A DNA stretch of 63,231 nt, counting the filler, from Craspedostauros australis (lineage: Eukaryota): assembly GCA_030167865.1 (NCBI GenBank). It is 14 parts of 14 records of this genome, joined end to end, with 100 filler letters (N's around TTAATTAATTAA, not from the genome) between each part and the next. Parts side by side here need not be neighbours in the genome. Positions count along the whole stretch, not along the records: positions 46,634 to 61,014 come from JALAGF010001085.1; 13 more parts are not named here. One strand, written 5' to 3'. This document shows positions 15,481 through 61,114 of the stretch, one piece after another. Numbering within the stretch: the first letter of the stretch is position 1; the number at the start of each line of letters is the position of its first letter. The notes under the pieces are model-generated. The model was given only the letters and a program-made list of their open reading frames with translations, was not told the origin of the DNA and did no database searches. The position numbers and the translations under genes were made by a program.

Positions 15481-15678
15481 GTTTCAATGAAAGTAATCAC
15501 GATTCAATGAAAGTAATCACGATTCAATGAAAGTAATCAGGATTCAATGAAAGTAATCACGATTCAATGAAAGTAATAGCGTTTCAATGAAAGTAATAGC
15601 GTTTCAATGAAAGTAATCGCGTTTCAATGAAAGTAATCGCGTTTCAATGAAAGTAATGACGTTTCAATGAAAGTAATA
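15481..15678 (+). repeat. 20-bp tandem array, 10 copies (G[T/A]TTCAATGAAAGTAATNNN)
   Basis: Direct reading; the invariant core contains the odd palindrome TTCA-A-TGAA. Confidence 0.97.
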
Positions 15679-27324: not shown

Positions 27325-29104
27325 TTACCACCCCATGAGCATGCGGCGCAGGTGCTCGAATGCATCCCGCGCGAGACCCTTGGTGAAGATATCGGCGACT
27401 TGGTGTGGTGTTGGCACGTGCAGGATTCGAATGAAGCCCTCCTTGACCCAGTGCCAGAAGAAATGCCACTTAGTGAGGAAGTGCTTGGTCCGCGCCGTGA
27501 CCTTGTGGTTCGTTGCCAGTGCAATGCACGCCTCGTTGTCTTCAAAAACGGTGCATTGGATGTTGGTTTGCAGCGGTTGGTTGAGGCTCGTTGATGCGTT
27601 GACTTCGTTGATGAGTTGTTGCATGGGGATGAGGGCACGCATGGCAAGAGACAGCGCGGCGTATTCCGACTCCATTGTTGATAGGGCGATCTCCGTCTGC
27701 AGTTTCGATTTCCACACGAGCGGGCAGCCACCGAGGATGATGACGTAGCCGGTGCGTGAGCGCACTGCGTTGGGAGAATCGTCGGGCTCGCGCTTGTATA
27801 GACCAGCAAAGTCGGCATCCACGTAGCACTCCAGGTTAAGTTGGCCCGTTGGTCGTACGATAGTGCCCATGGTGTTTGTGTGGCGGAGGTATCGCACGAT
27901 CATCTTAATGGCCTTTGCGTGCGGTTGGCGGGGATCGTTGCTGAATCGGGCCACTTGAGAGACGGCGAAGGCAAGGTCGGGGCGTGTGTTCGTAGTCAAG
28001 TAGAGCAGCATGCCGACGATGGAGCGGTAGTTCCATGCTTCCTTCATTGGTGGTTGGTCGGTTGAGGCGCCGAGGGCAAGTTGTGTTGTTGGTGTCACAT
28101 TTGGTTTGCAGTGTTGCATGCCGGTGGCCTCGATGATCTTGTTGATTAGCCCGGTTTGCTTGAGGTGGATGGTGTTGTTTTTGGGGTCTCGATGCAGTGA
28201 TATTCCCAGAAATTCCGTGAATGTGCCTTCGCGTGTGAGATCAAATCCGCGTTTGCGCATGGACTCGATGAATGCGTCTGCCTCTTCTTCCGTACGCGAT
28301 GCGATACCGGCGTCGTCCACGTAGAGAACAATCATCATGCCGTCGCGCATGAACAGGCACTTCTCTTGATCACACGCGTGAAATCCTTCTGCAAGGAGGG
28401 CGCGCACGAGATGCTGATACCATAGCTTGGGAGCTATAGTTAGACCGTAAAGGCTTTTAATCAGCTTGAGGCACGTGTCAGGTCCATTCGTTGATCGGAA
28501 GCCGCGAGGAAGGTGTAAGTAGACAGGTCGGTGGATGTCGGCTTGGACGAACGCGTTCGGAAAATCGATCGACGTCGTGACCCAGCGAAGCAAAATGGAG
28601 AGGATGAGAAAGACGCGGACGGACGACCATGCAACGACCGGAGCGTAGGTCGCTTCCGTTTCGGTCATCATATCGCCTCTGCAGCACCATCGGCCTTTAT
28701 ATTTCTTGACCGTGCCGTCGGGCATTCGCTTGCGTTGGAATACCCATGTCCCCGGGAAGATGCGATCGGTGGTGGAAGATTTCGGCACCTCAATCCACGT
28801 CCCTTTGTTGGTGAGGTCGTGAATTTCCTTGTGCGCGGCGGCCATCCATTCGCTTTTGTTGTCGTCATTCATTGCCTCGTTGAAGGAAAGAGTGTCAGGG
28901 TCAACTTTTGATGCCTTGTAGCTGTAGTGACGATCTGCGATGTCGAGGTCACCGCCGCTGGTGAAGAAGTTGAGCAGGTCGTATGTGATGACGGTACTGT
29001 GGTTGTCGTTGTCGTCGTGCTCGACCGCTGCTGCCATCGCGTAGTGTTCGTCGGTTTCGTCGTCATGCGGCGGTGGTTGGTGGGCGTAGTGAGTTGATGC
29101 CGAA
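27325..29104 (-). mobile_element. Ty1/copia pol: complete RT-RNase H, interrupted upstream by a family B LTR
   Basis: WVFQRKR.PDG..KKYKGR, IDFPNAFVQA, KSLYGL, LYVDD, RPDLAFAV, YVDADFAG, IALSTMESEY, EDN, ADIFTK; open to the stop codon. Confidence 0.97.
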
Positions 29105-29377
29105 TGTCGAGATGTACATGTGAGTATATGTCGAGATGTACGAGTATATGTGCATCGTTCACCCGCTATTCTCTCATACGCACTTGGACGGTATAACTAC
29201 ATTCGTGTCNNNNNNNNNNNNNNNNNNNTCAGAATTACAGGGGAAACGGAACACACGAAAAGGGGCAAGATTTCTGGAGGAAATTTGCAAATGACGATTT
29301 CTAAGAGAATTGGAAGATCGTCCGTCCATCCATCAATGGTACCAAGAGAATCTCGAGGTACTTCCCAACTAAACCTC
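29105..29377 (+). mobile_element. LTR family B, 5' part (cut by contig end)
   Basis: Starts TGTCGAGATGTAC; closely similar to the reverse complement of 47269-47528. Confidence 0.85.
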
Positions 29378-39075: not shown

Positions 39076-40008
39076 TCACAGCAACGGCTGGGCCTCTCCA
39101 TGAACCACGATCAAGTCCTTCTGAGAAGAGTCTCGAGACGTGGTGTCGAAGCTGCTGTAGGATGTCGCCGCACCCAGAGTCTGCCGCATCTCTGGATTCG
39201 GATCCTGCGCACAGATTGCAGTCTCGCACCCGTGCTGCGTTGCGTTTGAAGTTTCTCGCCGCGGAATGTCTGTCATCCCCATCTCCAAAGATAGGTACCA
39301 TTCGGTCGTGAAGGTGGCGTGCAGAATGCCAAGCAGGAAGGCCCCAATGAGCATGTCGCTTGAAATTGCCTTGATCTGCTCGTCAGTCGCCTCTTCAGTG
39401 AGTGCAGGGAACAGGCCCGTCCATCCATACTTGTATGTGATGATGAAGGCCATGAGCCAGAAGCGCTGCAGGGTGAAGGCTTGGAGGTACCCGACCAACC
39501 GAATGGCCCAGAACTTGTGTCTTGGGATGTCCTTGTATACGGCAGCGTATCGCCATGCCATGTAGACGCAGTAGGACACGACGATGGCGTATACGACGGA
39601 GATGATCTTGATGAAAGCAGCATCGCTGGTGGAGGCCATTCCGCACCCAGTAGCGATCTCCACCACAACGACCACCATGAGGAATCTGCCGAGGTACCTG
39701 TGCATCCATGGGAACGTCTTGCGAATGTAAGGGATGAGCTGGAAGAAGTAGAGGTTCCACCAAAGGATGGCACAGATGATATGCGGGAAGAAGTAGATGT
39801 ACCTCCTCGGGCTGTAGCATGTGGGCGAGATGTTGGGGACGGCGGTGGAGTTGTAAAACGCACCATCGACTGGATGACTGCGGAGCTGTTCCAGGCTGTG
39901 CTTGGGGTCCCAGAAGCGGTAGCCCACGAGACGTCCCAACGAGACGAACCAGGAGACGAAGAAGAGTATCACCAGCCAGGAGATTACGTAGATGTCGCGT
40001 CCTCTCAT
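39076..40008 (-). CDS. DUF2306-like multi-pass membrane protein, paralog 1
   Basis: H...ILW....FQL...IRK....HRYLGR and I..HK.W..R motifs; about 6 hydrophobic segments. Confidence 0.85.
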   Translation of the reverse strand: MRGRDIYVISWLVILFFVSWFVSLGRLVGYRFWDPKHSLEQLRSHPVDGAFYNSTAVPNISPTCYSPRRYIYFFPHIICAILWWNLYFFQLIPYIRKTFPWMHRYLGRFLMVVVVVEIATGCGMASTSDAAFIKIISVVYAIVVSYCVYMAWRYAAVYKDIPRHKFWAIRLVGYLQAFTLQRFWLMAFIITYKYGWTGLFPALTEEATDEQIKAISSDMLIGAFLLGILHATFTTEWYLSLEMGMTDIPRRETSNATQHGCETAICAQDPNPEMRQTLGAATSYSSFDTTSRDSSQKDLIVVHGEAQPLL

Positions 40009-40760
40009 CTTGTTGCTGATGGGTGTGGTGGTTGGGTGCCTTAGTCACCTGTGATCTTGCTTTTTATGGTGCTCGGTGTGCAGCACTTTCTCCAAGCCAT
40101 GATGCTGCGACACTGCGATGATACGATGCTGCGATGCTGGGGTGCTGGACCCGTATTCGCAATGACACAGCAAAGTGCAGCCAAGGTCTCGCTCCGCAGG
40201 GAATGCGTGTGCCTGGCCCTGGCCGTTTCATTCCGTGGATGACTCGCGAAGTTACTCATTTCTCCCATCATTCACGATTTCGGTTCGTCGCTTCGGCCGA
40301 TTCGCGAAAGTTTCTCGTAACACAACCACATGCATGTTCGCCGGTACGTGTAAGCTACAGTGAGCCCCCCAGATCAGCATCTCCGACCAGCGTGCTTCAC
40401 TCAAATACAAACTCCGGAGAGAGGAATTGGGTGGGCAACACCGCTCCTGTGGCATCACCGCGTTCGCAGATCACACAAATCTTTCGAAACGAACCGTGCC
40501 TGTTGAGTGTGTGACACACGATCATCGAGAAGTTGAGAAATGAGCCTTTCGTGCAGCGCGAATGCGCAGATCTTACACGCATTGTGGTATGATGATCTAT
40601 TATATGTTTGGTAAACTAGAATGTAATAGCATAATTCTTGCGCATGGTGTCAGCGATGTTCGGACCAATTTGAATTCCATGGAATGTACTTGCATGGCTC
40701 TCCTCGCACAGATCCGATCTAGATCCTGCCATTGTCCCATCAGCATCGCGTCGATGGTTC

Positions 40761-41660
40761 TCACAGCAATGACTGCGCCTCGTCGCGACGCGGTTGCTGC
40801 GACGAAGCTTTCGCGTTGTCGCTGAAGCTGCTGTACGTCGTCGAACCTTGCGGGTTGCTGTCCGTGCCGATTGCTGATTGCTGCGTCGCAGGCGACGCCG
40901 ATGCTCCTGGCTGCACGACGTCGGACACCCCCATCTCCAAGGAGAGGTACCATTCGGTCGTGAGGATGGCATGGAGGATGCTGATGACGAAGGAATCATC
41001 GAACATGCGCAACACGAGGGTGCGGATGTCTTCGTCGCTGGTGTCGTCGGTGATGGCGGGATACAAGCCGGTCCATCCGCTCTGATGGCTGATGATGACG
41101 AACATCAACCAGAAGCGTTGCAAAGCAATGGTCTGCAGGTACCCCACCAGTCGCATCACCCAGAACTTGTGCCTTGGGATATCTTTGTAGATCGCAGCGT
41201 GACGCCATGCCTTGTAGACGCAGTAGAACACGGCGGCGGCAAAGATGCACGAAACGATCTTGATGATGGAGGAATGGCTCGTGACCGCCAATCCGAATCC
41301 ACTCCACGCCTGAATGAGGACGACGACCATCAGGAATCTTCCGAGATACCTGTGCGTGCTTCGGAACCTCTTTCGGATGGATGGGATGAGTTGGAAGAAG
41401 TAGAGGTTCCACCAAAGGATAGCGCAGACGACGTGCGGGAGGAAGTAGACATACCGTCTCTGCGTGAAGTAGGACTTTGAGATCTCGGTGGTCGCAGTGG
41501 AATTGTAAAAGAGTTCCTCCGTCGGGTGTTCCTCAGCCTTTTCCAGGTTGTATTTGGCATCCCAGAAGTGGAGGCCGATGAGGCGTCCCAACGCGACGAA
41601 CCAGGAGACGAAGAACAGCAGCACCAGCCATGAGATCACGTAAATGTCGCGTCCTCTCAT
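40761..41660 (-). CDS. DUF2306-like multi-pass membrane protein, paralog 2
   Basis: Tandem paralog: identical start MRGRDIYVISWLV and shared motifs through TTEWYLSLEMG. Confidence 0.85.
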   Translation of the reverse strand: MRGRDIYVISWLVLLFFVSWFVALGRLIGLHFWDAKYNLEKAEEHPTEELFYNSTATTEISKSYFTQRRYVYFLPHVVCAILWWNLYFFQLIPSIRKRFRSTHRYLGRFLMVVVLIQAWSGFGLAVTSHSSIIKIVSCIFAAAVFYCVYKAWRHAAIYKDIPRHKFWVMRLVGYLQTIALQRFWLMFVIISHQSGWTGLYPAITDDTSDEDIRTLVLRMFDDSFVISILHAILTTEWYLSLEMGVSDVVQPGASASPATQQSAIGTDSNPQGSTTYSSFSDNAKASSQQPRRDEAQSLL

Positions 41661-42702
41661 CTTGCTCGATCGATCGTTTGTGTTGTTGGCTTTGTTGCTG
41701 CGTGTATGTATGTGTGCGTGCGTGTGCGTGCGTGGTGGCTTGGTTGCGTGATGGCTTGGTTGTGTTTACTTTTGCTTCTGTTGTTTTTGCGAGCGTGCGG
41801 CGACAACTTCCTGAGTGGTGGACTCTTTGCTCTCCTCACTCATCCGTCAAAGTTGCGATTGGAACTTCTCCTTCGTTCCACTTTGGAATCGAATAGAATG
41901 GCAGAGCAGAGCATGAACGATGCTGGGACATGATGATCATTTCATGACATTCAATGATGTGCAACAAGGAAGTCGTCCGGGTCTCGATTGCAGTCGGCAT
42001 CAGCTTCCGTCATCATCGCCTTGTTCCGCGATGGAACATCAGGGATGTTGTTCATTTTGTGCGTTGAACGCAAACAGGAGGCGGAGAAGAGTTTGTTCCA
42101 GGTTGTTCCTGTGGCGCGAAGTGCATGTTTTGCTTCGATCCGCGTCATCCCACATCACAGGTATTGACATGACGTGGCGTCATCTTGGTCGTTTTGTTCT
42201 CCATCTTTTTCTCTAGACTTGCATCATAAGCTATACTTTGCATGTGTGTCTGATAAAATGGGTGTTAACTGACCGACCAGACTATTGCACAGCCAATGTT
42301 TGAAATCAGTGGGAGTTGCGGTGATGAAATAAAATTTGACAAGACACTGAGCCCAAACAAGAACGAATACGCAAAAATCGTGCCATTCGCGACAAAGAAA
42401 AACAAGAGACATCACCACCACCATCGCAATCACAATCACGATCACAACCACCATCAAAGATCCATTTGCAGCCCGCGGTGTGCTTCAGCAACAACAAAGT
42501 TAGGGGAGCAATTCTTTGGTGACTCCAATCAATCCAATCGAAATCAATCCAACCCAATCCAATCGAACCCAACCACACTGGTGCAGAGGCGGCAACGGAA
42601 GTAGCAGCAACAGATCCACGACAGTGCTTAGTTGAGGCTTGAGAGACGCGGGACCGATTGGGCGATACTGGTAGAGAAGTGGTCCGTTCATCAACATCCG
42701 CC

Positions 42703-46533: not shown

Positions 46534-46633
46534 NNNNNNNNNNNNNNNNNNNNNNNNNNNNNNNNNNNNNNNNNNNNTTAATTAATTAANNNNNNNNNNN
46601 NNNNNNNNNNNNNNNNNNNNNNNNNNNNNNNNN

Positions 46634-47268
46634 TTGTTGTTGTTAAGTTATTGTTGTATTCAATTGATGATTGATGAGATTTGTGAGAACAAGATCTCAT
46701 TCATCCTAAGTTGATGCATTATGCATCATTTCTACTATCTTGCCCGATTCTACTGTTGTTCATCATCGGGTCTTCCTACTATTCTGCTCGATGTCGCCGT
46801 GGTCCATCGTGCATGATTCCTACTTTGTTGCCCAAGGTTGCTGGCTGCTTTGCGCAGTATCCCGTGTTATCTCTCCTCTTGGGTCTTTATTCATCTCTGT
46901 CTGAGCCTGCCTAGTCTTGGACTCTCTTGGTGTCCATATATCTCAGCCTGTCGATGTCAGCAGATTGCTTGCATCATCCCTGACATCATATGACTATCTC
47001 CTAATTGTTGTTACCACGTGCTCACTGATGCACCTGGCGTCACTAGACAAGTCAGCATAACATGACTATCACTTATTCTTGATCCCTCGGACCTCAGTGA
47101 CGGTCCTCTGATGTCAGTCTCTGATGTCAGTTCCTACATCAGTTCTGATGACAGCAGGACCCGAACACCATTCGCATCATCAAGACTCATCCGACTATAC
47201 TATCAATCGAGTCGAATCACGTTTCAGTCATGTGAGATGTTAGCCTAAATTCGATCTAGATGTTGACA
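46634..47268 (-). mobile_element. LTR family C, copy 1 (635 bp visible)
   Basis: Appears identical to 61115-61749; homology ends exactly at ...GATGTTGACA, with different flanks. Confidence 0.9.
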
Positions 47269-47528
47269 TTTCGCTTGGTACCATGGGTTCCATTGATGGA
47301 TGGACGGACGATGTTCCTGATACTCTCAGAAATCGTTATTTGCAGATTTCCTCCAGAAATCCTGCTCATTTTCGTGTGTTCCATTTGTGGTGTGATTTTG
47401 CCAAATCACAGTTCACTACGACACGAATGTAGTTGTACCGTCCGTACGTGAGTATAAGAGAATAACGGGTGAACGATGCACATACAGATACGTACATCTT
47501 GACATATACACGCATGTACATCTCAACA
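47269..47528 (-). mobile_element. LTR family B, 5' part, inserted in copia pol and itself interrupted by LTR C
   Basis: Reverse complement starts TGTTGAGATGTAC and aligns with 29105-29350. Confidence 0.85.
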
Positions 47529-48459
47529 CTCGACACCAGATCCTACATCGTTGAATTCCCTGATGGTGTGGAGAAAGAATACACCGCAAACATCATCGCT
47601 CAGAACATGTACGCCCAATGTGACCAGGACGGAAATCAGCTGCTGCTGATGGATGACATCATCAACTACAAGAAGGAGGCATCGGCGATTTGTGAAGCCG
47701 ATGGGTATGCCATGATCGGTGGGAGACGGCATCGGCGACGCACGACGCGAGGTTGGAAGCTATGTATCCAATGGAAGGACGGGACAACCACGTGGGAACG
47801 CCTGGCCGACCTGAAAGAATCCAATCCGATCGAGGTGGCTGAATATGCAATCGCACAGGGCATCGCGAATGAGCCAGCATTTGCATGGTGGATTCCATAC
47901 ACCATTCGAAAGCGGAACATCATCATCGCGAAGGTCAACAAGCGGCAACTCAAGAAGACACACAAGTTCGGCATTGAGGTTCCTCGAACGGTCGAGGAAG
48001 CATTGGCGCTTGATCGGAAGAATGGCAATACCCTGTGGAAGGATGCCATCGCGAAGGAGATGAAGAATGTCAGAATTGCTTTCCAAGTCTTGGAACAAGA
48101 CGAGGAGGTGCCGAAAGGGTACCAATTCATGAAATGTCACATCATCTTCGACGTGAAAATGGATTCCTTTCAACGGAAAGCTCGGCTGGTAGCCGGGGGA
48201 CACATGGTGGACACACCAGCAGCGATGACATACTCCAGTGTGGTATCAAGGGAGAGTGTACGGATTGCGTTGACGATTGCTGCACTCCACGATCTGGAGG
48301 TTCAGGCAGGGGACATTCAGAATGCGTACCTCACTGCACTGTGCAAGGAGAAGGTGCGAACAATATGCGGACCGGAATTCGGAGCTCTACAAGGGAGGCA
48401 TGCACTTATCGTGAGGGCGTTGTATGGATTGCCAAGCGCTGGGGCGAGCTTCCGGAACC

Positions 48460-48667
48460 TATTAGAGCACTATCGTAAAAAATCACGAGGGGTGAGCAAA
48501 AGCAAAGTACCATGCCGGGATTCGAACCCGGAACCTCAGTGAGAATTACTGGTGCTCTACCGTTGAGCTACAGGCGATGCGATTGCTGAACCGAACACAA
48601 GTGAAATTTACAGATAGTGGGGGCTACGGGAGTAACGTACTTAGCACTATACGGATTTGTGCTGATA
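48460..48667 (-). mobile_element. 208-bp non-coding insertion with an internal tRNA-like cassette and 5-bp TSD (GAACC)
   Basis: TSD at 48455-48459 and 48668-48672; the empty site restores GASFRNHLADC; termini TATTAGAGCAC / GTGCTGATA. Confidence 0.93.
48507..48577 (-). ncRNA. tRNA-like sequence (pseudo-tRNA; nominal anticodon TTC, non-canonical loop)
   Basis: D arm GCTC-AACGGTA-GAGC, anticodon arm CAGT-AATTCTC-ACTG, T arm CCGGG-TTCGAAT-CCCGG; intact A and B boxes; poorly paired acceptor stem and no U33; T-runs downstream. Confidence 0.8.
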
Positions 48668-48957
48668 GAACCATTTGGCGGATTGCATGCGCGAATTGGG
48701 GTACACTTCGTGCACAGCGGATCCAGACCTATGGATGAAGGAGGCCGTGCGACCGGATGACGGGTTCCGATACTACAGCTACGTACTGCTGTACGTTGAT
48801 GATGCACTGGTCATCCACCACGATGCCAGTCGGTGCCTACACGAGATCGATTGGTTCTTCAAGATGAAACCGTCATCGATGGGAGACCCAGATTTATACC
48901 TCGGTGGCAAGCTGCGACAGGTGGAATTACCAAACAATTTGATTGCGTGGTCGCTGT

Positions 48958-49714
48958 TGTTGGAAATCCGGGGTAATGGTAGTAGACTAATCTGTTATCA
49001 ATCTGTACCGTTTTAGAACTGTGAGAACAAACTCCTTGACTCTCTTCAATTCCAATTCAACAGCAAGTGTAATCCATAGCAGATCACCATGATCATGCAC
49101 TTGTTCATGGTTGCTTTCATCTGCTTCATCACCTTGCTCTCATGCTCTCTCCTGCAGATTCGTCATGCATTATCGTGGTAGTTTGCACCTTCATCATTCG
49201 AGCAGCATCTCTCATAGACGCACAGATACCTTCAGCATGGGTCTCAGCCTGATCGATCCCACATGATCCTCAGTTCTTCAGTATTCCTCCTGCGCTATCA
49301 TCACATACTCACCGGTCATGTTCATTGCATGTCGCGTCGTCATTCGTGCTCTTGAGCGGATAGGGGGATCGCTTCCGTTTCTCTTTCTCAAAGAAGCAAT
49401 CCCTTGTCCCTCAATGCGCGTCGACATGTCTAGTATATATCGACGGTGTCGCCCATAGTCTTGGCTCATGTGCGAATACATCCCTAGTGGTCGAACCATA
49501 GGTTCGCCCTCATTTCAGTGGTGGTACATGGATAGGCTCCATGGCGGGACATGACTGATGTTGATGTCATTCATGGACAGAGGAGTAAAGGGGGACAAGC
49601 TACAAGGTAGTCCGAGTGTGATCAACAATGTTGATTCCATTGAGTCGTGAAAATATTATTGGGAGGTGCGGCAATCATGGGTATCTTGGTAAAAGCGTTC
49701 CCTGATTCCTGACA
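48958..49714 (-). mobile_element. LTR family A solo LTR (757 bp) with 6-bp TSD CGCTGT
   Basis: TG...CA termini; TSD at 48952-48957 and 49715-49720; the empty site restores AWSLSSSKYAQEA. Confidence 0.93.
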
Positions 49715-50738
49715 CGCTGTCATCGTCGAAGTATGCCCAGGAGGCGGTCCGCAATGTGCGGACATTTGTGGAACCGCGACAACTGAGGATACCGAAGCGA
49801 TGCAGCGCACCATTTCCCCGGGAATATCGCCCGGAGATGGACCAAACGGAGGAACTGGATGAAGAGCAAGCTTCATTCTATCAATCTCAGATCGGAGTGC
49901 TGCGGTGGATCGTCGAACTGGGAAGGGTTGACATCATTGTGGAGGTTTCGATGCTGTCATCGCATGTGGCAATGTCGAGAGAGGGGCATCTCGATGCGCT
50001 GCTGCATGTGTTTGGATATCTGAGCAACCGACACAATGCACGAATGGTGTTTGATCCAACCTATCCGGTCGTTGATGCCAACGCATTCAGGGATGAGAAC
50101 TGGGACAATTACTATGGGGACGCGAAGGAGCCGATCCTGCCAGACGCACCACCAGCACTGGGAAAGGACGTGGACATCCGGATGTTCGTCGATTCCGACC
50201 ATGCAGGTGAGCGGAGAACGCGGAGATCAAGGACAGGCTTCATCATCTACATCAACATGGCACCGGTGACATGGTTCTCAAAGCGGCAGGCCACCGTGGA
50301 GACGTCTGTGTTCGGGGCTGAGTTTGTGGCAATAAAACAGGGAATGGAGGCACTACGTGGACTGCGCTACAAGCTACGGATGATGGGAGTGAACATATCA
50401 GGACCGTCAATGGTGTATGGGGACAACATGTCGGTGATATACAGCACGTCACGTCCAGAGTCGACACTGAAGAAGAAGTCCAACTTGGTGTGTTACCACG
50501 CGGTGCGCGAATCAGTTGCAATGAAAGAAATGGTGACTGCCCACGTTCCATCCATCACGAATCCGTCGGATCTATGCACAAAGGTCATGACCGGAGGACA
50601 GAAGCGGGACGGTCTGGTGGGCATGGTGCTATACGATATCTGTGACGAGCATAGCCCAGATGGATAGAGCATGCGTCTGGACAAGCAATAGCAGAACCGA
50701 AGACGCCATGACAGCTGAGGATATCATGCCGAGGGGAC

Positions 50739-51164
50739 TGAATCGGATCGGTCAAAATGCCAGATGGAAGATAGAGCGGTGTCCACAAAAGACCCCAATC
50801 TTTTGTGCACGCACTGCGAACACGTAACGAGAGTTTTCACCCAGGCATTGCGCCACGGTTTCTCTCATACTTTTACGACACCCTTCTCGTGTCACACACA
50901 CCCTTCTCTTTTCTCAACGCATCTTGTCTCATCGCCCAGCTGTGTTCGCACGCAAGTACAATTGCACCACCGGATTGCTTGAAAAGGGAAGCGGCAAGTT
51001 GGACTGGACCGAGTCATGACACTCACTGCCCCATTCCCTCGCTCTCGTGACTCACTCAGCCTCGCCGAAACAACTCATCCCAAACGTGCGCCAAAGCTCC
51101 TTCTTCTCGATGTCACACCCAATCTTGCACACATCAAACATTGTATTCGTTGATCCTCAATTCA
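50739..51164 (+). mobile_element. 3' LTR of the CoDi element
   Basis: Follows PPT-like GAGGGGAC; inverted termini TGAATCGGATC...GATCCTCAATTCA. Confidence 0.7.
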
Positions 51165-51275
51165 GCCCCCAGCGTGGATACAACACGATCAACAAGAGAA
51201 GGAGTACTCTCACTGGTATCATAGAATACTATTCGAATACGATACAAGCGTGTTGCTATCATCGCTTGCAGCACC

Positions 51276-52496
51276 ATGGACAGCTCAAGTCCCGCAGATG
51301 GCGCAGGTTCTTCCACGCCAGCATCGAACTCAACGAGCAGCAACAGCGGCAGCGACAGCGGCAGCGACAGCACTCGACGACCATCGCGTTGGAGATCAGC
51401 CATAGACAAGGCGTTGCCCGAGAACAACCGCAGCGTCAACGACATATCACCTTTGAAATCTCCCAACATTCTGGCCATCCTCACGGGATCAGGTTCGGCA
51501 GAGGCATCGTCGATGGCGGCGTCGCAGCAAAAGCAACAGCAGCAGCAAGGGAAGGAGTCTCAGTTATCGCTGGACTCCGTGCTCTCGGCCTTTCAGACGG
51601 GAACCCTGGGCGACTACATCTCGCAAGAGATCGATGCGGCGACCTACAAGATGGGGCTCGCCACGATGGAACATTCAATGACGATGGCGGCAGGAGTGCT
51701 GTTCGGCGCTGCGCTGTCCACGGGCATCATCTTGGGCGCTCTGGTGGTGATCGGCGGGTCCTCGTTTCGCGCTGCCGAACGTGATCCCGCTCTTGATGGA
51801 TCGACGCAACACTTCGGTGGTCAGCTGGCAAGTGGGAAGGAGGGATCCTCGTTTCAGCTCGTCTGGCCATTTGAATCATTTCTGCGATGGTACCACCGTT
51901 GCTTCCGACCTCGACCAAGGAGCTCATCGTTGGCCCGCAAAGGGTTGTCACCTCGTCGATTGGACGGTGCCGTGCAAGCGTCCGACGCGCAACCTCATGC
52001 CAATCATTCCACCACACCTTCATGCGACGAATCAACGAACGGATACACTGTCCTGATGTCATCGGGACCGACACCGCATCCACCATCAGCGTCAACCCAA
52101 GTGTCAACACCGGGACCAACACCCGCGGCACATTCCAAGCTCATTCTCTTTGCTTGCAAGCTCCACGATGCGAAGGGAAAGTCGGCGGACGAGCAACATC
52201 AAGAGTGCATCGCCATGGTCGCATCCAAGCTGGAATCGTACCGAAGCGGCGCCGATTGGGCAAATGTGCGACGTCTCATGGTCCATCTGGTGGAGACTCA
52301 CGATGTCACTGGCAACACGGGCACGGTGGATTCCGCTTCCAACTTTCGCGATCGTTTGCGTACCGCAGTGCAAGTGAGCGGATCTGCAGCACCGCAGGCA
52401 GACGTAGACGATCTATTCGCGCTCACCATCGTCTATGTTACCCGGCTGGAGAGCAAGGACTCCGTCGTTGAAATCGAGGTCATGGCCAACATATAG
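51276..52496 (+). CDS. Membrane protein with a C-terminal YjgF/Rid-like domain
   Basis: Disordered N-terminus, one long hydrophobic segment (AAGVLFGAALSTGIILGALVVIGG), C-terminal EQ..EC......L...GA.W.NV..L.V.L...T.V.V..L......VEIEV.A pattern. Confidence 0.7.
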   Translation: MDSSSPADGAGSSTPASNSTSSNSGSDSGSDSTRRPSRWRSAIDKALPENNRSVNDISPLKSPNILAILTGSGSAEASSMAASQQKQQQQQGKESQLSLDSVLSAFQTGTLGDYISQEIDAATYKMGLATMEHSMTMAAGVLFGAALSTGIILGALVVIGGSSFRAAERDPALDGSTQHFGGQLASGKEGSSFQLVWPFESFLRWYHRCFRPRPRSSSLARKGLSPRRLDGAVQASDAQPHANHSTTPSCDESTNGYTVLMSSGPTPHPPSASTQVSTPGPTPAAHSKLILFACKLHDAKGKSADEQHQECIAMVASKLESYRSGADWANVRRLMVHLVETHDVTGNTGTVDSASNFRDRLRTAVQVSGSAAPQADVDDLFALTIVYVTRLESKDSVVEIEVMANI

Positions 52497-52857
52497 TATA
52501 GTACCCGCATAGAGAACAAGCGTGGACGAAGGGGAATACGTGGAATGGTGCTGCTGTTCCACTGGGTTGCAATTGCGATACCTCCTTTTCGGAAAAAGAA
52601 CTCTCACGCATGTGAGCATTATCATATAATACATGTTTAGAGTCGATATTCTTGAACATTATAATTATACAGCTGTTTATGAATACTGAGTTACTAGTAC
52701 AGTCCATTTGGATTGCAGTTTGAGCACAGCAGCGGAACACCGCGGTTCTTCATTGTTTGCGATTGGGGCGGAGACGAAAGATCATCGAGCACTCCAATGC
52801 AAAGGCTCTCCGCTGTTCTTTCCAACCGTGCCTCTCGCACGCAGCAAGCATGAGCGA

Positions 52858-55800
52858 TCAGATGTCGCTTGGGCGCAGCTCGTAGCTTTCTTCATCAGAG
52901 TCAGAGTCGTAATTGGATTCCGCTTCGTCGTATTCATAGGATTGGGCGTCCGGTTCTTCATCGAACTTCTCGGGCTCGATCAGCGAGCCATTCTCCCATT
53001 TGCCAGACCTCATCAGGCTGCCATCAGCTCTGTACTCGGTCCCATGCCCGTGCCGGACACCATTCTTCCAGGCACCAACGTACTTGCCTCCGTTCGGCCA
53101 CGTCAGTGTGCCCTGACCCTCGATTTGATCCTTGCGGAAGTCGCCGACGTAAACAAGCGCGGAGTTGCCGAATCGGTACGTGCCGTTGGAACCGTGACGC
53201 ACGCCGTGGGCGAACTTGCCTGAGTAAGTGGATCCATCCTCGTACATCATGGTGCCCTCCAGCTTCACATTCTTCTCGAACAGACCTTCGAAGCGACGGC
53301 CGTCAGGAAAGTCCAACGTCCCGTGTCCGTTCTTCATGTTTTGAGAGAAGAAACCCTTGTACGTCGCACCGCTCCAGTAGCAGCTCTGCCCGAAGCCATT
53401 CTTGACGCCATGGACGAACTGCCCCTTGTACCACCGCAGTTGAAAATCGTGGTTCTTCGCTAGGTCCTTCAAGTGCTTCGGATTTCGCTTCTGCTGTGAT
53501 GGTCGGTCGAGGTACTGGAGCTTGCCGTGTCCGCATGGTTTGCCGCTCTCCTCGGACAGCATGCCCGAATACTTCATCCGAAGGCCGGTCTCGTCGTCGT
53601 CATATTCCATGTCATTCACCATGATCCTGTCATCGTCCAGATCCTGCGGTTCGATGGGGCGTTGCATGATGTCGAGAGAAAGCAGGAGAGTCTTGGATTC
53701 CAGCTCCTGCTGACCCTCCGGCAACGATCCCATGGCGCTCCAGCTGCGCTCCGTGCAGGATCGGTTCGTCCGTTCCGTCCTCTGCGATGGGCTGGTCGGG
53801 ACGAACTGATCTCCGCGCAGATTCAATGAGACGCTTCGTGTGGTGTGCTCCGTCTCCTCGTAGTGGAGGGAGAAGTAGCTCGAATCAACTGAGCACTGCG
53901 ACGCGCAATTGTCATCGTCATCGGTATTGTCGTCGTCATTGTTGTTGGCATCATGTTTGCCGTGAGCACTTCGAAGACCATCATAATCATCATCATCGAC
54001 GTCGTCATCGTTGACTTCGCTATCGCTCTCCTCCTGATCGTTGATGGTCTCGTCTTCGTCTGAATCTTGCATCACCTCGTGCCGAGGAGACATGTCGGCG
54101 CCAGGCGATCCGTCTACGCGACCTGTATCACCGAGATCATCGCGGCTGAGATCATGACAGTCTTCATCCTTTTCGCAATCCTCATGCTGGTACTTTGACA
54201 AATTCAGTTCGTACTCATCCTGCGAATCTTTCATCATGACGATGAATCGGTCCAGGGACAGCGAGGTGGTTCTGCTGCCATCGTTCAAGGATTCGACGTC
54301 CGAAAATGATGCATCTGCGAGCGCTTTGAAGACATCATCGCAATCACGCATGCTGGCGTGTTGGATGACTTGGAACAGGTAGGTGTGAGAGAGGTCACAC
54401 TCCAGCTGCTTCCGATGCCGTTGGAATCTTCGAGTACCCTCATCGCGGCCACCGCTACTCTTCGCCTTCGGCTTGCTTTCTGACACTTGAGAATTTGCTC
54501 CCAATTCCTTCAACGACGATTCGACGTGATCTTGGATTTCTTTCAAGATCGAGGGGGGCTGTTCCTCCGAATCGCGATCATCCTCCACTGAGCCATTCAG
54601 GCCGATCGCTCTTGACGATGTGGACTTTTTGCGCTGTCGCGTTTCCGAACGCCCTTTCCTTTCTTCCTTTCTGCTCATGTGCTTCGTCATCTTCATGTCG
54701 TTCTTTTCCGACGTCTGCGACTGTCGTCGGCGTTGCTGTTCGGCGGCGTCCTCTTTGTCCACCTTTTTCCCGTCGTGTTGCTGACCCTTCGACTTCTGCG
54801 TGTGTTCGGCTGAGACCGCACGCGCGAGGCGCTCGTTGAGTGCCTGCAGCAGGACGAGCAGTTCATTCTTGCTGACGGCGTTCACATTCTCGCCGTCCTT
54901 CGTGTCTGCGCCAAGGTCGCCAATCTCGTCGTTGCTCTTTGCCATGTGCGCAGCAAGACCAATCGATGTGCCTTCGGCTTTCGCAGCGACGGCATTTTGC
55001 AACTGGAAGATCGAGCTTTCCGAGTTGGATCGATGCCTTGCATAGACGCGTCTGCGCAGATCAAGCAGCGAACCCTGCCCTGGCAAGCCCCTGGCATTCG
55101 TCCTGTGCAGGCTTGTGCCGAGATTGCTGGATGATGGGCCAGCCATGGAGTCCATCGACGCTCGTCTGGGAATCCTTCGACGCGACAACGATGAAGATCT
55201 CGACCGTTGCTGCTGCTGCTGTGGTTGGCGCTGCTGCGATCGCGATCTTGTTGGAAACGGCGCTCTTCGGAACCTGGGCTGATGCGGGCTTTGCTGTGTG
55301 AAGAGGGAGTTGACTCGCTTGAGATCCGCCAACGAGCCTTCCGAATTGGACCGCTTGATCGGAGCCAGAGGCATGTCCGCCTCATTCTTGTTTCTGTCTG
55401 ACACATTCGCGGGTGACGAGGAAGTGAAGGATTGGAAGGCAGGCGGTGCTCCTGATGTGGTGGTGGTATTGATGGTGTCCATGGAGGAACGTCGTGGGCG
55501 TCGATGCTGGCGCCGTGCCTTGGAGGAGTGCGAGCTGCTTCTTCCGATTGGCTGCTGTTGATGCTGCTTTTGTGGCTGTTCTGACTGCTGTTGCCGCCCG
55601 GTGCTTGCTTCGTCGCGCTTGTGAGAAGCAGAGGGCATCAAGCTTCTTGTCGAGGCGGCCATCTTTGTCGACGTGTGTTGCATGCGGCGTCGGCTGTGCG
55701 ATGATCTGTCGACCTCCTCCTTGGTGAGATCGTCGCTGCTGTTGCTGCGTTGAACCGAAGGCTCTGTTGTGGACGCCTTGTCATCGGTGGTTGCGGTCTT

Positions 55801-58005
55801 TGATGATCGGTTCCGGAATGATGATTGTATTTTGTGGAGCGGTGATCGACGGTGATCCGCATGGCGAGGCCCATCAAGTTTTTCATTGTTGGCAGCGTGA
55901 TGCTGTTGCTCGTTGTTGGTGGAGTGGATGGTATTGCGGCCAGTGGGCGCCTTGGGGCTTTTGGATGGAAGTCTGCTGCTGCGACGCGGTGGCCGTTGAT
56001 CGATGATGGTGGATTCATTGCTGTCATGGAGCTTGTCGTCATGCTTGGCTGCCGTTCGGTTGTCTCTACGTCGCTGGGTTTGGCGAGGCGAAGGTTGCAA
56101 GTGACTTGACAAGGTGAGGTCGTTGCGACTGCCCGACGATACGTGCAGACTCTGCGACAAGGAGTCGTTGCTCTTGCGGCGCCTGGCTCTGTTGGTGGAT
56201 TGATGGCTGCTGTGCGCCTGCAGCCTGTCGTTGCGCGTTCGGGAGCCTCTCGATCGTGACCTTGGCGGATTCTGAGTGGAGTTCTTTCGCTGATGCGACC
56301 GATCCGGCGTCTGCGATTGCGCTGGCGACGGCGACGGTTGCTGTTGCTGTTTCTTTTGCAAGTAGCGCTGGTCTACCGGTGATATTGGAACAGAAGTGGA
56401 GGCCTTGCTGGCCTCGTCGCTCGCCTCCGGCACAAGACCCAGCCAGCTCTCGGATTGCTCATGAACCAGCCTTCGACGCGGCAGGCCCGATGACAGCGTC
56501 GAGACGGTGGAGGCCATCGACGGATGGGATTGGTTGGGATCAAACTCGGAGGAGCTGGACAGCACCGTCTTCGCCGTCGCCTTGCTGAGATTGCCGATCG
56601 ACTGCTGACGGATCATGGGCTTCGTTGCCTGAACGTGTTCATCGTTGCTAGCATCGGCTGTTGATGTTGATGCCGATGGCTGGTCCTTGCGTTGCGCATG
56701 CGGGCGCCTCCTCGCCGAACCCGATCGTTTGCGCGATCTGGAGCTGGATCGCTGCTTGGCCCGTCGACGACCGGCACTGCGCCTGGAATCAAGCGAAGAC
56801 GGACGTTTGTGGACACCCTCGTTGGTGCTGGAATCCTGATCTTCGCCGTTGCTGTTGCTGCTGCCGTTGCTGCTGGAAAGCTTGCGTCGCCTCGATGATG
56901 CTGACAGCGTCGACGATTGGCGCTGGGGTCTGGGGTCCGATCCTGATCTGTTCCTTCTGTGACGGGCACCACTGACTTCCGACTGCTGCGTCCTGCTGCT
57001 GTCGCCATTCCCCTTCTGGTTCTGACTCTCGTGTTCCGTGCCACCATCACCATCCATCCCATCGTCATCAAGTGCGCTTTCCATGCTGCCCATGCTGCTC
57101 ATGCTGCGCTCGACTGTGTCGTCCACTGTGTCGTCGGCTGTATCGCCCTCACCCAAACGTTCGGAGGATGCTGTCGTGCCCAAGGTTGCAAAGGACTCAT
57201 CTCCGAAGGACGAATTGAAGGAGGTCCACGTATCGCCGCTGGCCACCGATTGGTGGTAGTTGGCCGAGTCCTTGCTGCTGCCTCTGTGAGTGGCACTAGG
57301 AGCCATGCCTCTTTTCTCGTTTGTGCTGCGCTGGCCGTCCTTTTCTCTGCCTCTGCCTCTACCCCTGCCTCTGCTTCGATCTCTGCCATTGTGGTTGTCC
57401 TTCTGGGATTGCTTGTTCGCTCTTGCATCGGTCTCACCGTCAACGTTAACGTTAAGGTCAACGTTAACATGAACGCCAACCCGATCATGCTGATGCTGGT
57501 CTTCCTCCCCCTGCTCTTGCTCCAGATCCAGATCGACAGTTCTGAATGACTGAGAGCGCATGAGATCGCGCTTCGAAGGCGCCAGCTTGATCAACTTGGG
57601 TCTCGCGCCGCGTTCCGCCTTGCCGTCACTCCCTTGGGTGCCATGGTTGCCACCATCATCAGCATTGCCATTGAGCTTGTCAGTGGCCGACGACCTGCGC
57701 TCCCTCGGCTTGCCATGGCCGGAGGAACCAGGAAGGCACTTCATGGAGACCCGACCGATGGAGGACCCGATTGCCCTCGCGCTGGTGCTGATGCTGGCAT
57801 TGCTCTGCTTCACCTGCATCGTGGGAATGCCCTGCGTTGCCTGAACGCCCTTTTGTCTGCTATTGGTGGCAGTGGTGTCTCCTGCCATGAGCGATCTGCT
57901 GCCTGACGGTCTCTTTGTGCTGCTGTTGCCGTCCTTGCCGTTCATGGAGGAACGACGCGCCAGGAAGCGGTTGGATGGCGGCTTCAGCTCGCGCACTTCC
58001 ATCAT
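52858..58005 (-). CDS. Very large intrinsically disordered protein with C-terminal MORN repeats
   Basis: About 1715-aa ORF; about 7-8 Y.G.F..G..HG.G units near the C-terminus; S/R/Q-rich N-terminal 1400 aa. Confidence 0.88.
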   Translation of the reverse strand: MMEVRELKPPSNRFLARRSSMNGKDGNSSTKRPSGSRSLMAGDTTATNSRQKGVQATQGIPTMQVKQSNASISTSARAIGSSIGRVSMKCLPGSSGHGKPRERRSSATDKLNGNADDGGNHGTQGSDGKAERGARPKLIKLAPSKRDLMRSQSFRTVDLDLEQEQGEEDQHQHDRVGVHVNVDLNVNVDGETDARANKQSQKDNHNGRDRSRGRGRGRGREKDGQRSTNEKRGMAPSATHRGSSKDSANYHQSVASGDTWTSFNSSFGDESFATLGTTASSERLGEGDTADDTVDDTVERSMSSMGSMESALDDDGMDGDGGTEHESQNQKGNGDSSRTQQSEVSGARHRRNRSGSDPRPQRQSSTLSASSRRRKLSSSNGSSNSNGEDQDSSTNEGVHKRPSSLDSRRSAGRRRAKQRSSSRSRKRSGSARRRPHAQRKDQPSASTSTADASNDEHVQATKPMIRQQSIGNLSKATAKTVLSSSSEFDPNQSHPSMASTVSTLSSGLPRRRLVHEQSESWLGLVPEASDEASKASTSVPISPVDQRYLQKKQQQQPSPSPAQSQTPDRSHQRKNSTQNPPRSRSRGSRTRNDRLQAHSSHQSTNRARRRKSNDSLSQSLHVSSGSRNDLTLSSHLQPSPRQTQRRRDNRTAAKHDDKLHDSNESTIIDQRPPRRSSRLPSKSPKAPTGRNTIHSTNNEQQHHAANNEKLDGPRHADHRRSPLHKIQSSFRNRSSKTATTDDKASTTEPSVQRSNSSDDLTKEEVDRSSHSRRRMQHTSTKMAASTRSLMPSASHKRDEASTGRQQQSEQPQKQHQQQPIGRSSSHSSKARRQHRRPRRSSMDTINTTTTSGAPPAFQSFTSSSPANVSDRNKNEADMPLAPIKRSNSEGSLADLKRVNSLFTQQSPHQPRFRRAPFPTRSRSQQRQPQQQQQRSRSSSLSRRRIPRRASMDSMAGPSSSNLGTSLHRTNARGLPGQGSLLDLRRRVYARHRSNSESSIFQLQNAVAAKAEGTSIGLAAHMAKSNDEIGDLGADTKDGENVNAVSKNELLVLLQALNERLARAVSAEHTQKSKGQQHDGKKVDKEDAAEQQRRRQSQTSEKNDMKMTKHMSRKEERKGRSETRQRKKSTSSRAIGLNGSVEDDRDSEEQPPSILKEIQDHVESSLKELGANSQVSESKPKAKSSGGRDEGTRRFQRHRKQLECDLSHTYLFQVIQHASMRDCDDVFKALADASFSDVESLNDGSRTTSLSLDRFIVMMKDSQDEYELNLSKYQHEDCEKDEDCHDLSRDDLGDTGRVDGSPGADMSPRHEVMQDSDEDETINDQEESDSEVNDDDVDDDDYDGLRSAHGKHDANNNDDDNTDDDDNCASQCSVDSSYFSLHYEETEHTTRSVSLNLRGDQFVPTSPSQRTERTNRSCTERSWSAMGSLPEGQQELESKTLLLSLDIMQRPIEPQDLDDDRIMVNDMEYDDDETGLRMKYSGMLSEESGKPCGHGKLQYLDRPSQQKRNPKHLKDLAKNHDFQLRWYKGQFVHGVKNGFGQSCYWSGATYKGFFSQNMKNGHGTLDFPDGRRFEGLFEKNVKLEGTMMYEDGSTYSGKFAHGVRHGSNGTYRFGNSALVYVGDFRKDQIEGQGTLTWPNGGKYVGAWKNGVRHGHGTEYRADGSLMRSGKWENGSLIEPEKFDEEPDAQSYEYDEAESNYDSDSDEESYELRPSDI

Positions 58006-59468
58006 CGTGGTGGGCTCAGCCAGAGTATTACTATTCACTCTCTCACACACACACACTCTCTCTCTCTCTCTCTATTGGTGGTTGTATGTTGTGCACAAAC
58101 ACTTCCTGAGTGCAACTATCTCTATTGCCTCTTGTCTATTTTCTCTTGTCTATTGCTTCTTGTCTCTTGTCGCTATTTGTGCACAACGCAACTTGGTCCA
58201 GCTCAGACAAGAATGGAAAGAGCTGGGCAAGAAAGTGCTTCGACTTTCTTCCCTTCGTGTCTGTGCCTGTGTGGATGCGATGATCGTTCCCCTTGGATTT
58301 TGTCTCTCGTTTTCGTTGCGTGTTTTGAGTGATCTTTCGCGCCAACACTGTGACTTTGTTGCGACAGCGTGCTCGGAGCGTTTGGCGTTGCTGCGAATCA
58401 TCCTCGTCGCTCGGATGCGAGTATTCGTGGAATCCTCCGCAATTCTTCCACTACCCAAGCGCGCTGCCATGATTCTCAACGACGGAGACCGTTGGATCTC
58501 GTCGTGAGCGCATGGAGCAAGGGGAGCATAAGCCAGACATTTAAACGGTTTGTCGTCTGAATGCGGCCCACTGTTCGCTCAGGGCGCAACATGACAAGCC
58601 CAATCGAAACGAGGTTACTGCGCGGGGCACAAACAACCGCAACCAAAGCGATCTCAACAGGTGTTCGATGTCTGCGCATGGTTTCTGAATGTTCGTCAAC
58701 CGTTTCGCAGCCGGCATAAATAAACAGGTTGGGCGCACACTTTTTGATGACAACGGACGAAGGCGAGAAGCATCTATCCATTGGTCGTGAAATTTCAGCT
58801 TAAGCCTCGAGTGAATTTCGAGTCGCCGCACTACCACTGGATGGCACGGTGGTCACAAACTGGACGACGAGCGTGTCCGCGAAGCCAGCTCGTGTGTGTT
58901 GAAGGTTGACCGTGTTTGACACAATCCAAAAACATCAATGAGATCGTGAACACCGCATCAAGCAATTGTGTGATGACCATCTTCGTGAGATCAGTCATAT
59001 GAGTCGTACGAATCTCTCGCGATGTCCAGAAATGACGACGAAGCTCGCACGACTACTTTTGCGGGACTGGAAGAAGGCCTCCCTGTCGCTCCACAAAATC
59101 GCACGAAACGGTAACATCGACGTCGTTGCGATTGAACAGGATCGTTGCAGAACAAGAGGCAGGGATCATGCCGGTGCCAACAGGGTGTGGAACCATCTCA
59201 GCCTCGTCACAGGGTCTGATCATGTCGGCGATGCGACGGGTGCGAGAGAGAGAGAGAGATCAACTGGAGTCAAGTTCATGCACGTCCCTGGAGTCTCAAG
59301 CATGTGCTCTCTGCTATGTACGAGCCACGATCTATGTTATACCCTGTGTTCTCTATGCAACTGTGTCGCTGTGCATGGCTGCGTATCGCTCACATTGCTC
59401 TGCGGGTGGAGCCTCTACACCAGGGGGCACGTATAGTACACGTACAGTACACGAATAGGACACGCATT

Positions 59469-61014
59469 CTACTTCGAATCATTCGTGCTGAAGTTGATCA
59501 CCTTGTTCGTGCCCCGGGGCATGTCATCCCTCAGCTCCTTCGACCAGCCTTCTCCGGCCACCTCCAAGTACTCCGTCAAGAACAGGTCGGCCTCCGAACG
59601 CTCCTGATCGAACTGGAACAGATTCACCACGATGTGATCACGTCCGTCCCAAACGCTCACCACGGTTCCTTCCACGCAACGCGCCACCACCACAACACCG
59701 TCACCGACATCATCGTAAACCCGCATGGATTTCACGGTGAAGTCGACATCCTCGTCCTCCATCACGCTCGTCATGATGGAGGCGATGTTGGGGCTGTTAT
59801 CGTGGTCCTTGCTGCTGCGTCCAAGCTGCAGCACAGACTGACGACCGAAGGCGAGCTGGTCCTTCAGCTGCTGTTTCTCAGCACTCAGATCGTAGTCTCG
59901 TTGCGAAAACAGTGTCGCGTTGAACTCGTCGTTGTCGAGGTATCTCAGCGTTCCACCTTGCATGACGCTTGGCTTGACCATGAAGGTGTCACCGTACTTG
60001 GTGGCGATGGTGTCCTCCACACGTCGGATGCGAGGGAAGGTATCATTCATGTCCACAGTGAGGATGGACAGCTCGAATGCAGGAGCATCCATCTTGGCGC
60101 GCTTGGGTTGGACGATGATTTCGGTTCTGGTCAGAGGGTCGATGTCGAGCTTCAAGCGGATCTGCTTGAGAGTGTTGCGACGCCATTCATCCTTCGTGGA
60201 GTCTGGAAGGATGGAGACGTAGAGAGGCACGACCGTGTTCTGGAAGATGTTGCGTCGGAATGTCCAGAAGCTCGTGAAGATGCGTGCCATGGCGTACGGT
60301 GCTTCCGCATCCAGGATGACAGCTCCGATGGGTTGGTTGTGCTCGCGGATGGCGGATTTGATCTCATCCTCGATCGAATGGCGGCATTCATGCAAGTCAG
60401 CAAGGTTGCTGTTGTTGACATCGCCGTCTCCGAAGATGAGGGACTCCATCTCAGGACAGACATGGACCGGGACGATCTTCAACAATCCACTGCTGTTGTT
60501 GCTGTTGCTGTTGCTCTTCTCCAATGCGGAGGCAGAAAGACACCTGCTGGATTGGCTGCCACAGAACACAACCACCATGGAGCCATCCGCAACATCCATC
60601 GCATCCGTGATGGCACCCAGCGATGTCGCAAGGAAGTCATCGTCAGCCATCAGGCTTTCGATGGTGGCTGCAGCTGCAGGTGTTGGAGTGGTGCCGGTGG
60701 TAGTGGCAGATGGAACAGCCGCAGTTGCATCCTCCTCGGACGTATCACACTTGCGGGTGTGAGTGGTGAGATCTGGACCAATGAGCTTCGTGTCTTCCTC
60801 CCACGAGTTGTTGCCGTACATTCCAGACACGATGACGCGGTACGACGAGACGGAGCCCTTTACGGCATCGTTGCCGGCTCCGAGAGCCTTCACCAACGCC
60901 GTTCGTGTGGCGTCCATCTTCTCGAAGCGTCCCCACAGATGGATGTCCAATCCAACGTACGATCGTCCCTTCCACCAGCGGGCGATCACGTATCCCTCCG
61001 CCATCATGATCACG
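59469..61014 (-). CDS. C-terminal part of a probable diatom AdoMetDC-like/aminopropyltransferase fusion protein (long-chain polyamine pathway)
   Basis: EGYVIAR.W....Y.GLDIHLW..F.K...SSYR.I..GM.G..SW..D...IGP and terminal VGDG.V.V....EG.V..VWDGR.HI.VNLF...RD..PRG..KVINF blocks, recognised from memory of this family; the catalytic N-terminal part is beyond the contig break. Confidence 0.65.
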
Positions 61015-61114
61015 NNNNNNNNNNNNNNNNNNNNNNNNNNNNNNNNNNNNNNNNNNNNTTAATTAATTAANNNNNNNNNNNNNNNNNNNNNNNNNNNNNN
61101 NNNNNNNNNNNNNN

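Follow-up and report, generated by a model that had tools for sequence, protein, structure and literature searches.

The window analysed here, a stretch of 63,231 nucleotides from the diatom Craspedostauros australis, is composed of contigs joined by spacers of the form N44-TTAATTAATTAA-N44, which contain stops in six frames (17 paired, e.g. 46534-46633 and 61015-61114), so the order of the pieces and the distances between them are not biological. The contig located at positions 46634-61014 carries a copia-type reverse-transcriptase gene that is interrupted by two unrelated inserts, of 208 bp and 757 bp. Coordinates of the distinguished features are summarized in Table 1. The first 635 bp of this contig (46634-47268) are shared, with 100% identity, by the start of another contig (61115-61749). 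The assembly was interrupted at this repeat, which abuts the copia relic; the relic is truncated at its 5′ end and starts at about position 47286. Further along the contig, on the minus strand, lies a 1737-aa open frame (52861-58071) that has MORN repeats (66.8 bits) close to its C-terminus.

Two further copia reverse-transcriptase relics were found on the minus strand, at 27328-29196 (RVT_2, 134.6 bits) and at 13832-14872; both are 24-40% identical to homologues of the interrupted relic, which shows that several copia lineages are present. Tandem arrays occupy positions 10614-11500 and 15422-15701, with periods of 12 bp (reported in 53 overlapping 300-nt windows) and 20 bp (TTCAATGAAAGTAATCRCG-like units). 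Two segments lying 1652 bp apart (39248-40012 and 40900-41664) share 71-85% identity, overlap long open frames and probably represent a tandem gene duplication.

The copia identity of the interrupted gene was assigned on the basis of its homologues, since the piece upstream of the 208-bp insert alone matched the Pfam domain RVT_2 with a sub-threshold score (27.2 bits, cut-off 31.6). The frame has 2999 homologous proteins at E up to 0.001, and PF07727 is present in most of the 120 matches listed; the few of these matches that are named belong to two diatoms, Fragilaria crotonensis and Cylindrotheca closterium. On the plus strand, the frame reads ...GASFRN before the 208-bp insert and NHLADC... 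after it, and the insert is flanked by exact GAACC direct repeats that cannot be extended on either side. Deletion of positions 48460-48672 in silico yielded 426 aa with 0 stops, and the product could be aligned with the best homologue, P0002, without gaps over 405 aa (72% identity). The string SAGASFRNHLADCMR, which spans the insertion junction, is identical in the restored host and in P0002. Because the frame is restored and matches its homologue without gaps, the 208-bp unit is a genuine insertion into a diatom copia relic, accompanied by a 5-bp target-site duplication. A reading of the same DNA made without database searches (the sequence-only reading) had described an otherwise stop-free copia reverse transcriptase split by 208 bp between GAACC repeats; the split and the repeats were borne out, while the absence of stops is valid for positions 47466-48957 only. 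Two other types of duplication were considered and rejected: the restored frame holds exactly one GAACC and no TA, contrary to a Tc1/mariner-type TA duplication, and the 8-mers on both sides of the insert are not direct repeats, contrary to an 8-bp duplication of the hAT type.

Table 1. Features of the interrupted copia gene and of its two inserts (positions refer to the window; the sense strand of the 208-bp unit is the tRNA-like strand)
Feature	Position	Strand	Basis
Host copia-type reverse-transcriptase frame, 5′ of the 208-bp insert	47466..48459	+	homologue match from 47529
Target-site duplication GAACC, left copy, 5 bp	48455..48459	.	sequence, restored host frame
Inserted element, 208 bp, proposed solo LTR	48460..48667	-	exact flanking repeats, frame restoration and X1 contigs
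Terminal inverted repeat, left arm TATTAGAGCAC (sense 3′ end ...GTGCTCTAATA)	48460..48470	.	repeat comparison
Second T-run, T6, 17 nt from the sense 3′ end	48477..48482	-	motif scan
First T-run, T4, 12 nt past the end of the Rfam match at 48513; possible Pol III terminator	48498..48501	-	motif scan
tRNA-derived core: D arm, degenerate anticodon arm, T arm; non-functional as tRNA	48513..48572	-	Rfam RF00005; none by ARAGORN
B-box-like motif GGTTCGAATCC	48518..48528	-	motif scan; GGTTC conserved in Helenus
A-box-like motif TAGCTCAACGG	48560..48570	-	motif scan; fits Helenus TRGCY...YGG
Leader, 95 nt, U3-like, starts TATCAGCAC	48573..48667	-	no RNA-family match
Terminal inverted repeat, right arm (sense 5′ end TATCAGCAC)	48659..48667	.	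repeat comparison; end confirmed by foreign flank in X1
Target-site duplication GAACC, right copy, 5 bp	48668..48672	.	sequence, restored host frame
Host frame continued, up to the second insert	48673..48957	+	homologue alignment
Second, unrelated insert, 757 bp, TGTTGG...CCTGACA ends, solo-LTR-like	48958..49714	+	6-bp duplication CGCTGT at 48952-48957 and 49715-49720
Remainder of host copia open frame	49721..50664	+	homologue alignment

The 757-bp insert resembles a solo LTR from a different family. Two copies of it were identified in the window, at 17328-18082 (89% identity) and 25446-24976 (85%); the copy at 17328 is without a matching duplication, and no clear purine tract was distinguished upstream of a local copy of this family. 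Removal of both inserts restores a frame of 741 aa without a stop, which aligns with P0002 over 528 aa, again without gaps, and both insertions into the copia gene are therefore probably recent. Integrase-type insertion is probably active in this neighbourhood.

The 208-bp unit contains a tRNA-like core on the minus strand. The core was recognized by the Rfam model RF00005 with 35 bits (cut-off 29) over model positions 6-65 of 71, with an E value of 0.0013 for the whole window and of 6.7e-06 for 321 nt. No other Rfam family exceeded its curated score anywhere in the 63 kb, and Rfam revealed no further tRNA-like sequence in the window even at E up to 1. Both the D stem (GCTC/GAGC) and the T stem (CCGGG/CCCGG) are perfect, and the core contains TAGCT...CGG and GGTTC, which match the box patterns stated for Helenus elements. 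The remaining parts of the cloverleaf are degenerate: 4 of the 7 acceptor-stem pairs form (as read by eye from the sequence), one pair of the anticodon stem is non-standard in the Rfam alignment, and the anticodon loop, AAUUCUC, is devoid of U33 and of a purine at position 37. ARAGORN predicted 0 tRNA genes in the core with default settings and with thresholds lowered down to 80%, and at 70% it returned an implausible 95-nt SeC call. A functional tRNA gene is ruled out by the ARAGORN result, the partial match to the Rfam model and the non-canonical loop. A permuted or split tRNA gene was rejected as well, the arms being in normal order in the Rfam alignment, as was a Y RNA-like (YrlA) match scoring 19.4 bits against a cut-off of 69.

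The core is preceded by the leader, which gave no match to RNA families at E up to 10; a dimeric SINE with a second degenerate tRNA in the leader was discarded on the same result. Downstream, T4 is located 38 nt and T6 17 nt before the sense 3′ end of the unit, which terminates in ...GTGCTCTAATA without an A-rich or simple-repeat tail. The ends of the unit (TATCAG...CTAATA) form an inverted match of 7/11 positions without gaps, a value reached in 122 of 20000 shuffles, and the gapped anchored score was reached in 428 of 20000. The terminal inverted repeat is thus weak, yet better than chance. The motif ATAGTGCT is present twice near the ends of the unit (48643-48650 and 48466-48473). RNA folding of either strand was uninformative (z of -1.61 and -2.26). 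The anatomy proposed in the sequence-only reading, i.e. a leader, a tRNA-like core with perfect D and T arms, A and B boxes, a broken acceptor stem, an odd anticodon loop and T-runs, proved correct in the Rfam and motif scans, the comparison with RF00005 having been proposed there; the imperfect inverted ends and the motif near both of them were likewise confirmed. The suggestion, made in the same reading, that selection retained just the promoter arms finds no support from the one full copy.

Within the window, the unit has one copy, namely the element itself (blastn, word size 7), and the next match is 15 nt long, with an E value of 1.5. Searches of metagenome contigs with a first sequence pattern of the element returned 0 loci, and the three loci found with a second pattern (L001-L003) were rejected as chance matches of only 22 nt with no tRNA. 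Viral contigs (3 patterns) and prokaryote genome contigs (2 patterns) gave 0 matches. Further copies were revealed by X1, a public sequencing run that contains part of the stretch (share 0.12); its kind is guessed to be RNA and may be DNA, and no run on record as RNA was among those listed for the stretch. Comparison of X1 with positions 47400-49100 identified 11 contigs, all confined to 48461-48667, of which 10 show 95-99% likeness and one 90-95%. The depth of X1 on the copia flanks was 0 in all bins, and no run containing these flanks was found among the public sequencing runs searched. One contig (contig 8) follows the element to exactly position 48667 and then continues for 76 letters into unrelated sequence, while two short contigs end at 48461 and 48462. 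Another (contig 3) has the same left part with a 2-nt deletion, its match to the window ceasing 4 bases short of the left end. Continuation into other DNA is seen in only two of the 11 contigs, namely contigs 3 and 8, which are 224 and 226 nt long, and the X1 contigs are too short to display an LTR pair.

The 208-bp unit is therefore a member of a multi-copy repeat family with the same boundaries, as the sequence-only reading had supposed. Many variant contigs were observed in X1 over the T arm and trailer. The summed depth reaches about 311 on 48483-48539 (most of it within 48483-48547), whereas the leader half is covered by one contig, with a depth of 37. Most copies in X1 may diverge by more than 15% upstream of the anticodon loop or be truncated there; alternatively, the deeply covered part may be over-represented as RNA.

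A non-mobile origin of the unit, as filler DNA at a double-strand break, a captured tRNA gene or an assembly chimera, would accord with the single copy in the window and with a draft assembly of contigs joined by linkers, for which no junction-spanning read set was found. It is hardly credible in view of the exact 5-bp duplication with restoration of the frame, and of the 11 contigs, from another data set, that cover just the unit and have the same right end; moreover, no gap or linker lies within 1.8 kb of the insert. The contigs with the same boundaries argue for a repeat family rather than filler DNA or a chimera.

Short interspersed elements derived from tRNA genes are multi-copy and contain intact A and B boxes, and so does the family described here. 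If the unit were an atypical SINE, a LINE reverse transcriptase would have copied it from a transcript made by Pol III or arising by read-through. There are 13 putative SINE entries in the annotation of Phaeodactylum tricornutum, as far as its available part extends, and one X1 copy deviates at its sense 3′ end, as SINE tails do. Against this reading, the tRNA part begins about 90 nt inside the unit, behind a leader that resembles no RNA family (E up to 10), and both T-runs are internal, so that a Pol III transcript would miss the 3′ end of the unit. In the sole other copy that has a flank, the sense 5′ end is exact, two contigs end no more than two bases from the 3′ end of the unit, the duplication is short, and an A-rich or simple-repeat tail is absent. 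An internal head, internal terminator-like T-runs, the absence of a tail and a short, fixed duplication of 5 bp do not accord with a standard tRNA-SINE, which upholds the view taken in the sequence-only reading, and we consider even an atypical SINE quite improbable.

The duplication, the inverted ends and the fixed boundaries could also be explained by a MITE-like non-autonomous DNA transposon, in which a transposase would act on TATYAG...CTRATA ends and generate the 5-bp duplication, the tRNA relic being a captured passenger. The inverted ends exceed chance expectation, other copies in X1 have fixed ends, the unit is small and has no coding capacity, and 235 MITE entries are annotated in the available part of the P. 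tricornutum annotation. The inverted repeat is short for a MITE, however, with 7/11 matching positions, or 8/9 only when a 2-nt gap is allowed. Few DNA transposon superfamilies (Transib-like) generate duplications of 5 bp, and the unit has ends unlike those of Transib-like transposons. Such an origin would also leave unexplained the ordered leader, tRNA-like part, T-run and trailer, as well as the flanking sequences described below. No transposon partner with matching ends was seen in the window. We consider a MITE an unlikely explanation.

The two X1 contigs that extend beyond the unit provide information on its surroundings in other copies. In the sense orientation, contig 8 contains GTAGCGTAGGGGAG (ending GTAGGGGAG) directly abutting the element 5′ end TATCAGCAC, and the GTAGGGGAG flank resembles a polypurine tract. 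In contig 3, ...GTGCTCT is followed by TTCAGAG and then by TGGTAGGATGC, which starts 7 nt beyond GTGCTCT and contains TGGTAG, a primer-binding-site-like motif. The A1:U72 pair implied by TGGTAGGATGC would point to initiator tRNA. For each flank, both the side and the strand agree with the prediction of an LTR model. These flanks are the strongest pointer to full two-LTR elements, although, as 30-letter strings from two single contigs noticed post hoc, they give a hint. The element in contig 3 ends with TTCA, versus AATA for the last four bases in the window, and this contig may represent a subfamily or something else. Elsewhere in the window, the TGGTAG motif had a single one-mismatch match, inside the reverse-transcriptase frame and at chance level, and the polypurine motif from X1 had none.

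On the basis of the 5-bp duplication, the TAT...ATA inverted ends, the internal layout (leader, tRNA-like part, T-run, trailer) and the two X1 flanks, we favour the reading that the unit, seen here as a single LTR-like repeat, is a solo LTR from a non-coding miniature LTR retrotransposon (TRIM) of the Helenus/TRIMp3 type, and hold this reading with slightly more than even confidence. The 5-bp duplication is within the range of 4-6 bp expected for Helenus/TRIMp3. The genomic context is rich in copia sequences, and a second solo-LTR-like insert lies 285 bp away. The single copy of the unit in the window, the lack of copies in the other collections searched and the uneven depth in X1 count against a solo LTR, as do the T4 and T6 runs. 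Since no copy with two LTRs, a primer-binding site and a polypurine tract was seen, the unit is a candidate member of Helenus. The sequence-only reading had left the choice between a solo LTR and a MITE-like element; the evidence leans towards the former, of the Helenus type.

We propose the following course of events for such a solo LTR. In each LTR of the intact element, a tRNA-derived Pol III promoter, consisting of A and B boxes, would precede a T-run. The RNA would begin at the tRNA-like part of the 5′ LTR, cross a short internal part, in which a primer-binding site and a polypurine tract are situated, and stop in the 3′ LTR; T4 and T6 would halt Pol III inside the 5′ LTR unless they were read through. 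We infer that the RNA was copied in trans by a copia-type reverse transcriptase and that a copia-type integrase recognized the short inverted T(A/G)T...A(T/C)A ends, inserting the element with a 5-bp staggered cut. Its target here would have been the reverse-transcriptase gene of an older copia element, and recombination between the two LTRs, with loss of the internal part, would have reduced the insertion to one LTR flanked by the 5-bp duplications. No autonomous element with TAT... ends was identified as a partner.

The 208 bp might instead constitute the whole mobile element, a retroelement with a single repeat and a Pol III promoter that is inserted by a copia-type integrase and never had two LTRs. 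Such a hybrid of a SINE and an LTR element has not been described so far, and we regard it as very improbable; together with any other readings, it takes up the probability left over by the solo LTR, the MITE, the atypical SINE and an artefact or filler DNA.

The finding is probably a new case of a known element type in a new lineage, and no long-standing question is opened by it. We see about an even chance that the unit represents the first Helenus-type TRIM in diatoms or stramenopiles, having arisen there independently. In agreement with the suggestion that the unit is undescribed in diatoms, no report of TRIMp3 or Helenus in this group was found in the literature searched. If the preferred reading is true, LTR elements bearing a Pol III promoter (TRIMp3) reach a further eukaryotic supergroup, which would back the view of a repeated origin of TRIMp3 expressed in the available part of the Helenus study (PMC10886601). 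In diatom genomics, such units give tRNA-like matches that inflate the counts of tRNA genes and pseudogenes, an effect of Helenus demonstrated for rust fungi in the same source (PMC10886601). Automatic pipelines miss such units or mislabel them as SINEs or MITEs. They also mark recent copia-type integrase activity.

Several known systems share individual features with the diatom unit. Repeats of P. tricornutum carry, in the available part of their annotation, only automatic classes (putative SINE, TRIM-LARD or MITE). SINE2 elements are similarly short, non-coding and multi-copy, with tRNA-derived A and B boxes; the unit differs from them in its internal tRNA part, internal T-runs, lack of a tail and short fixed duplication of 5 bp. 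Cassandra, a plant TRIM, resembles it, by the description consulted, in that each LTR contains the relic of a Pol III gene, promoter and terminator included, and in having no coding capacity (PMC10886601), although this relic is derived from 5S rather than from a tRNA and the element is confined to land plants.

The termini, which had been thought unusual in the sequence-only reading because of their TA...TA form, are within the known range, since they have counterparts among published Helenus ends and in a documented Copia end type. "TATA" is a non-canonical end type of Copia elements, found with short LTRs (mean 229 bp in lotus; PMC9804982, citing Ou & Jiang 2018), and TA...TA is included in the LTR_retriever motif list (PMC8220671), in the parts of these sources drawn on here. 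As in the diatom unit, the 5′-TA...TA-3′ ends of these elements still form a short inverted repeat and their LTRs are short; they differ in being autonomous plant elements of about 4 kb, for which the same portion of the source reports no small-RNA relic (PMC9804982).

The closest resemblance is to Helenus, for which the following statements refer to the available parts of its description (PMC10886601), its sequences having been compared by eye in parts 1-2 of the 10 parts of DataS1, with no alignment. Helenus has been recorded in fungi, six animal phyla and Selaginella, with no mention of diatoms or stramenopiles in these parts, and its transcription by Pol III is unvalidated in its own paper (PMC10886601). 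Its fungal and plant families make 5-bp duplications, which flank many solo LTRs, and the quoted LTR lengths of 120 to 323 bp encompass the 208 bp of the diatom unit (PMC10886601). Box A (TRGCY...YGG) and box B (GGTTC) are conserved, and the tRNAs are mostly non-functional (PMC10886601). The LTRs start with T(G/A)T..., followed by a leader of tens to about 200 nt, a tRNA-like part, a T-run about 10 nt further on and a short trailer ending ...(C/T)A (DataS1, PMC10886601); by eye, this is also the order of the diatom unit. Three LTRs start with TATT, and of these Helenus-11B_PTrit and Helenus-17_PHor end ...CAATA and Helenus-1_PCor ends ...CAAAA, while several TG-starting LTRs likewise end ...CAATA (PMC10886601). 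The ends of the diatom unit fit this T(G/A)T...(C/T)A class, the TATT...CAATA cases included.

Internal parts of Helenus elements end ...GCAAGGGGGAG, a polypurine tract, and several begin with TGGTAGC, a primer-binding site (PMC10886601). An 18-nt string of the D arm is common, by eye, to the diatom core and to Helenus-4_PTrit, which is linked to tRNA-Ala-TGC predictions (Table 2, PMC10886601). This similarity hints that the core may come from a tRNA-Ala-type ancestor, and at common tRNA ancestry rather than kinship between the elements. The diatom unit differs from described Helenus elements in being a single LTR-like unit, with an internal part that is suggested by two contig ends, and from the known hosts in that its carrier is a diatom, i.e. 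a stramenopile. In common with Helenus, it is non-coding and has a tRNA-like core, non-functional as a tRNA, placed behind a leader.
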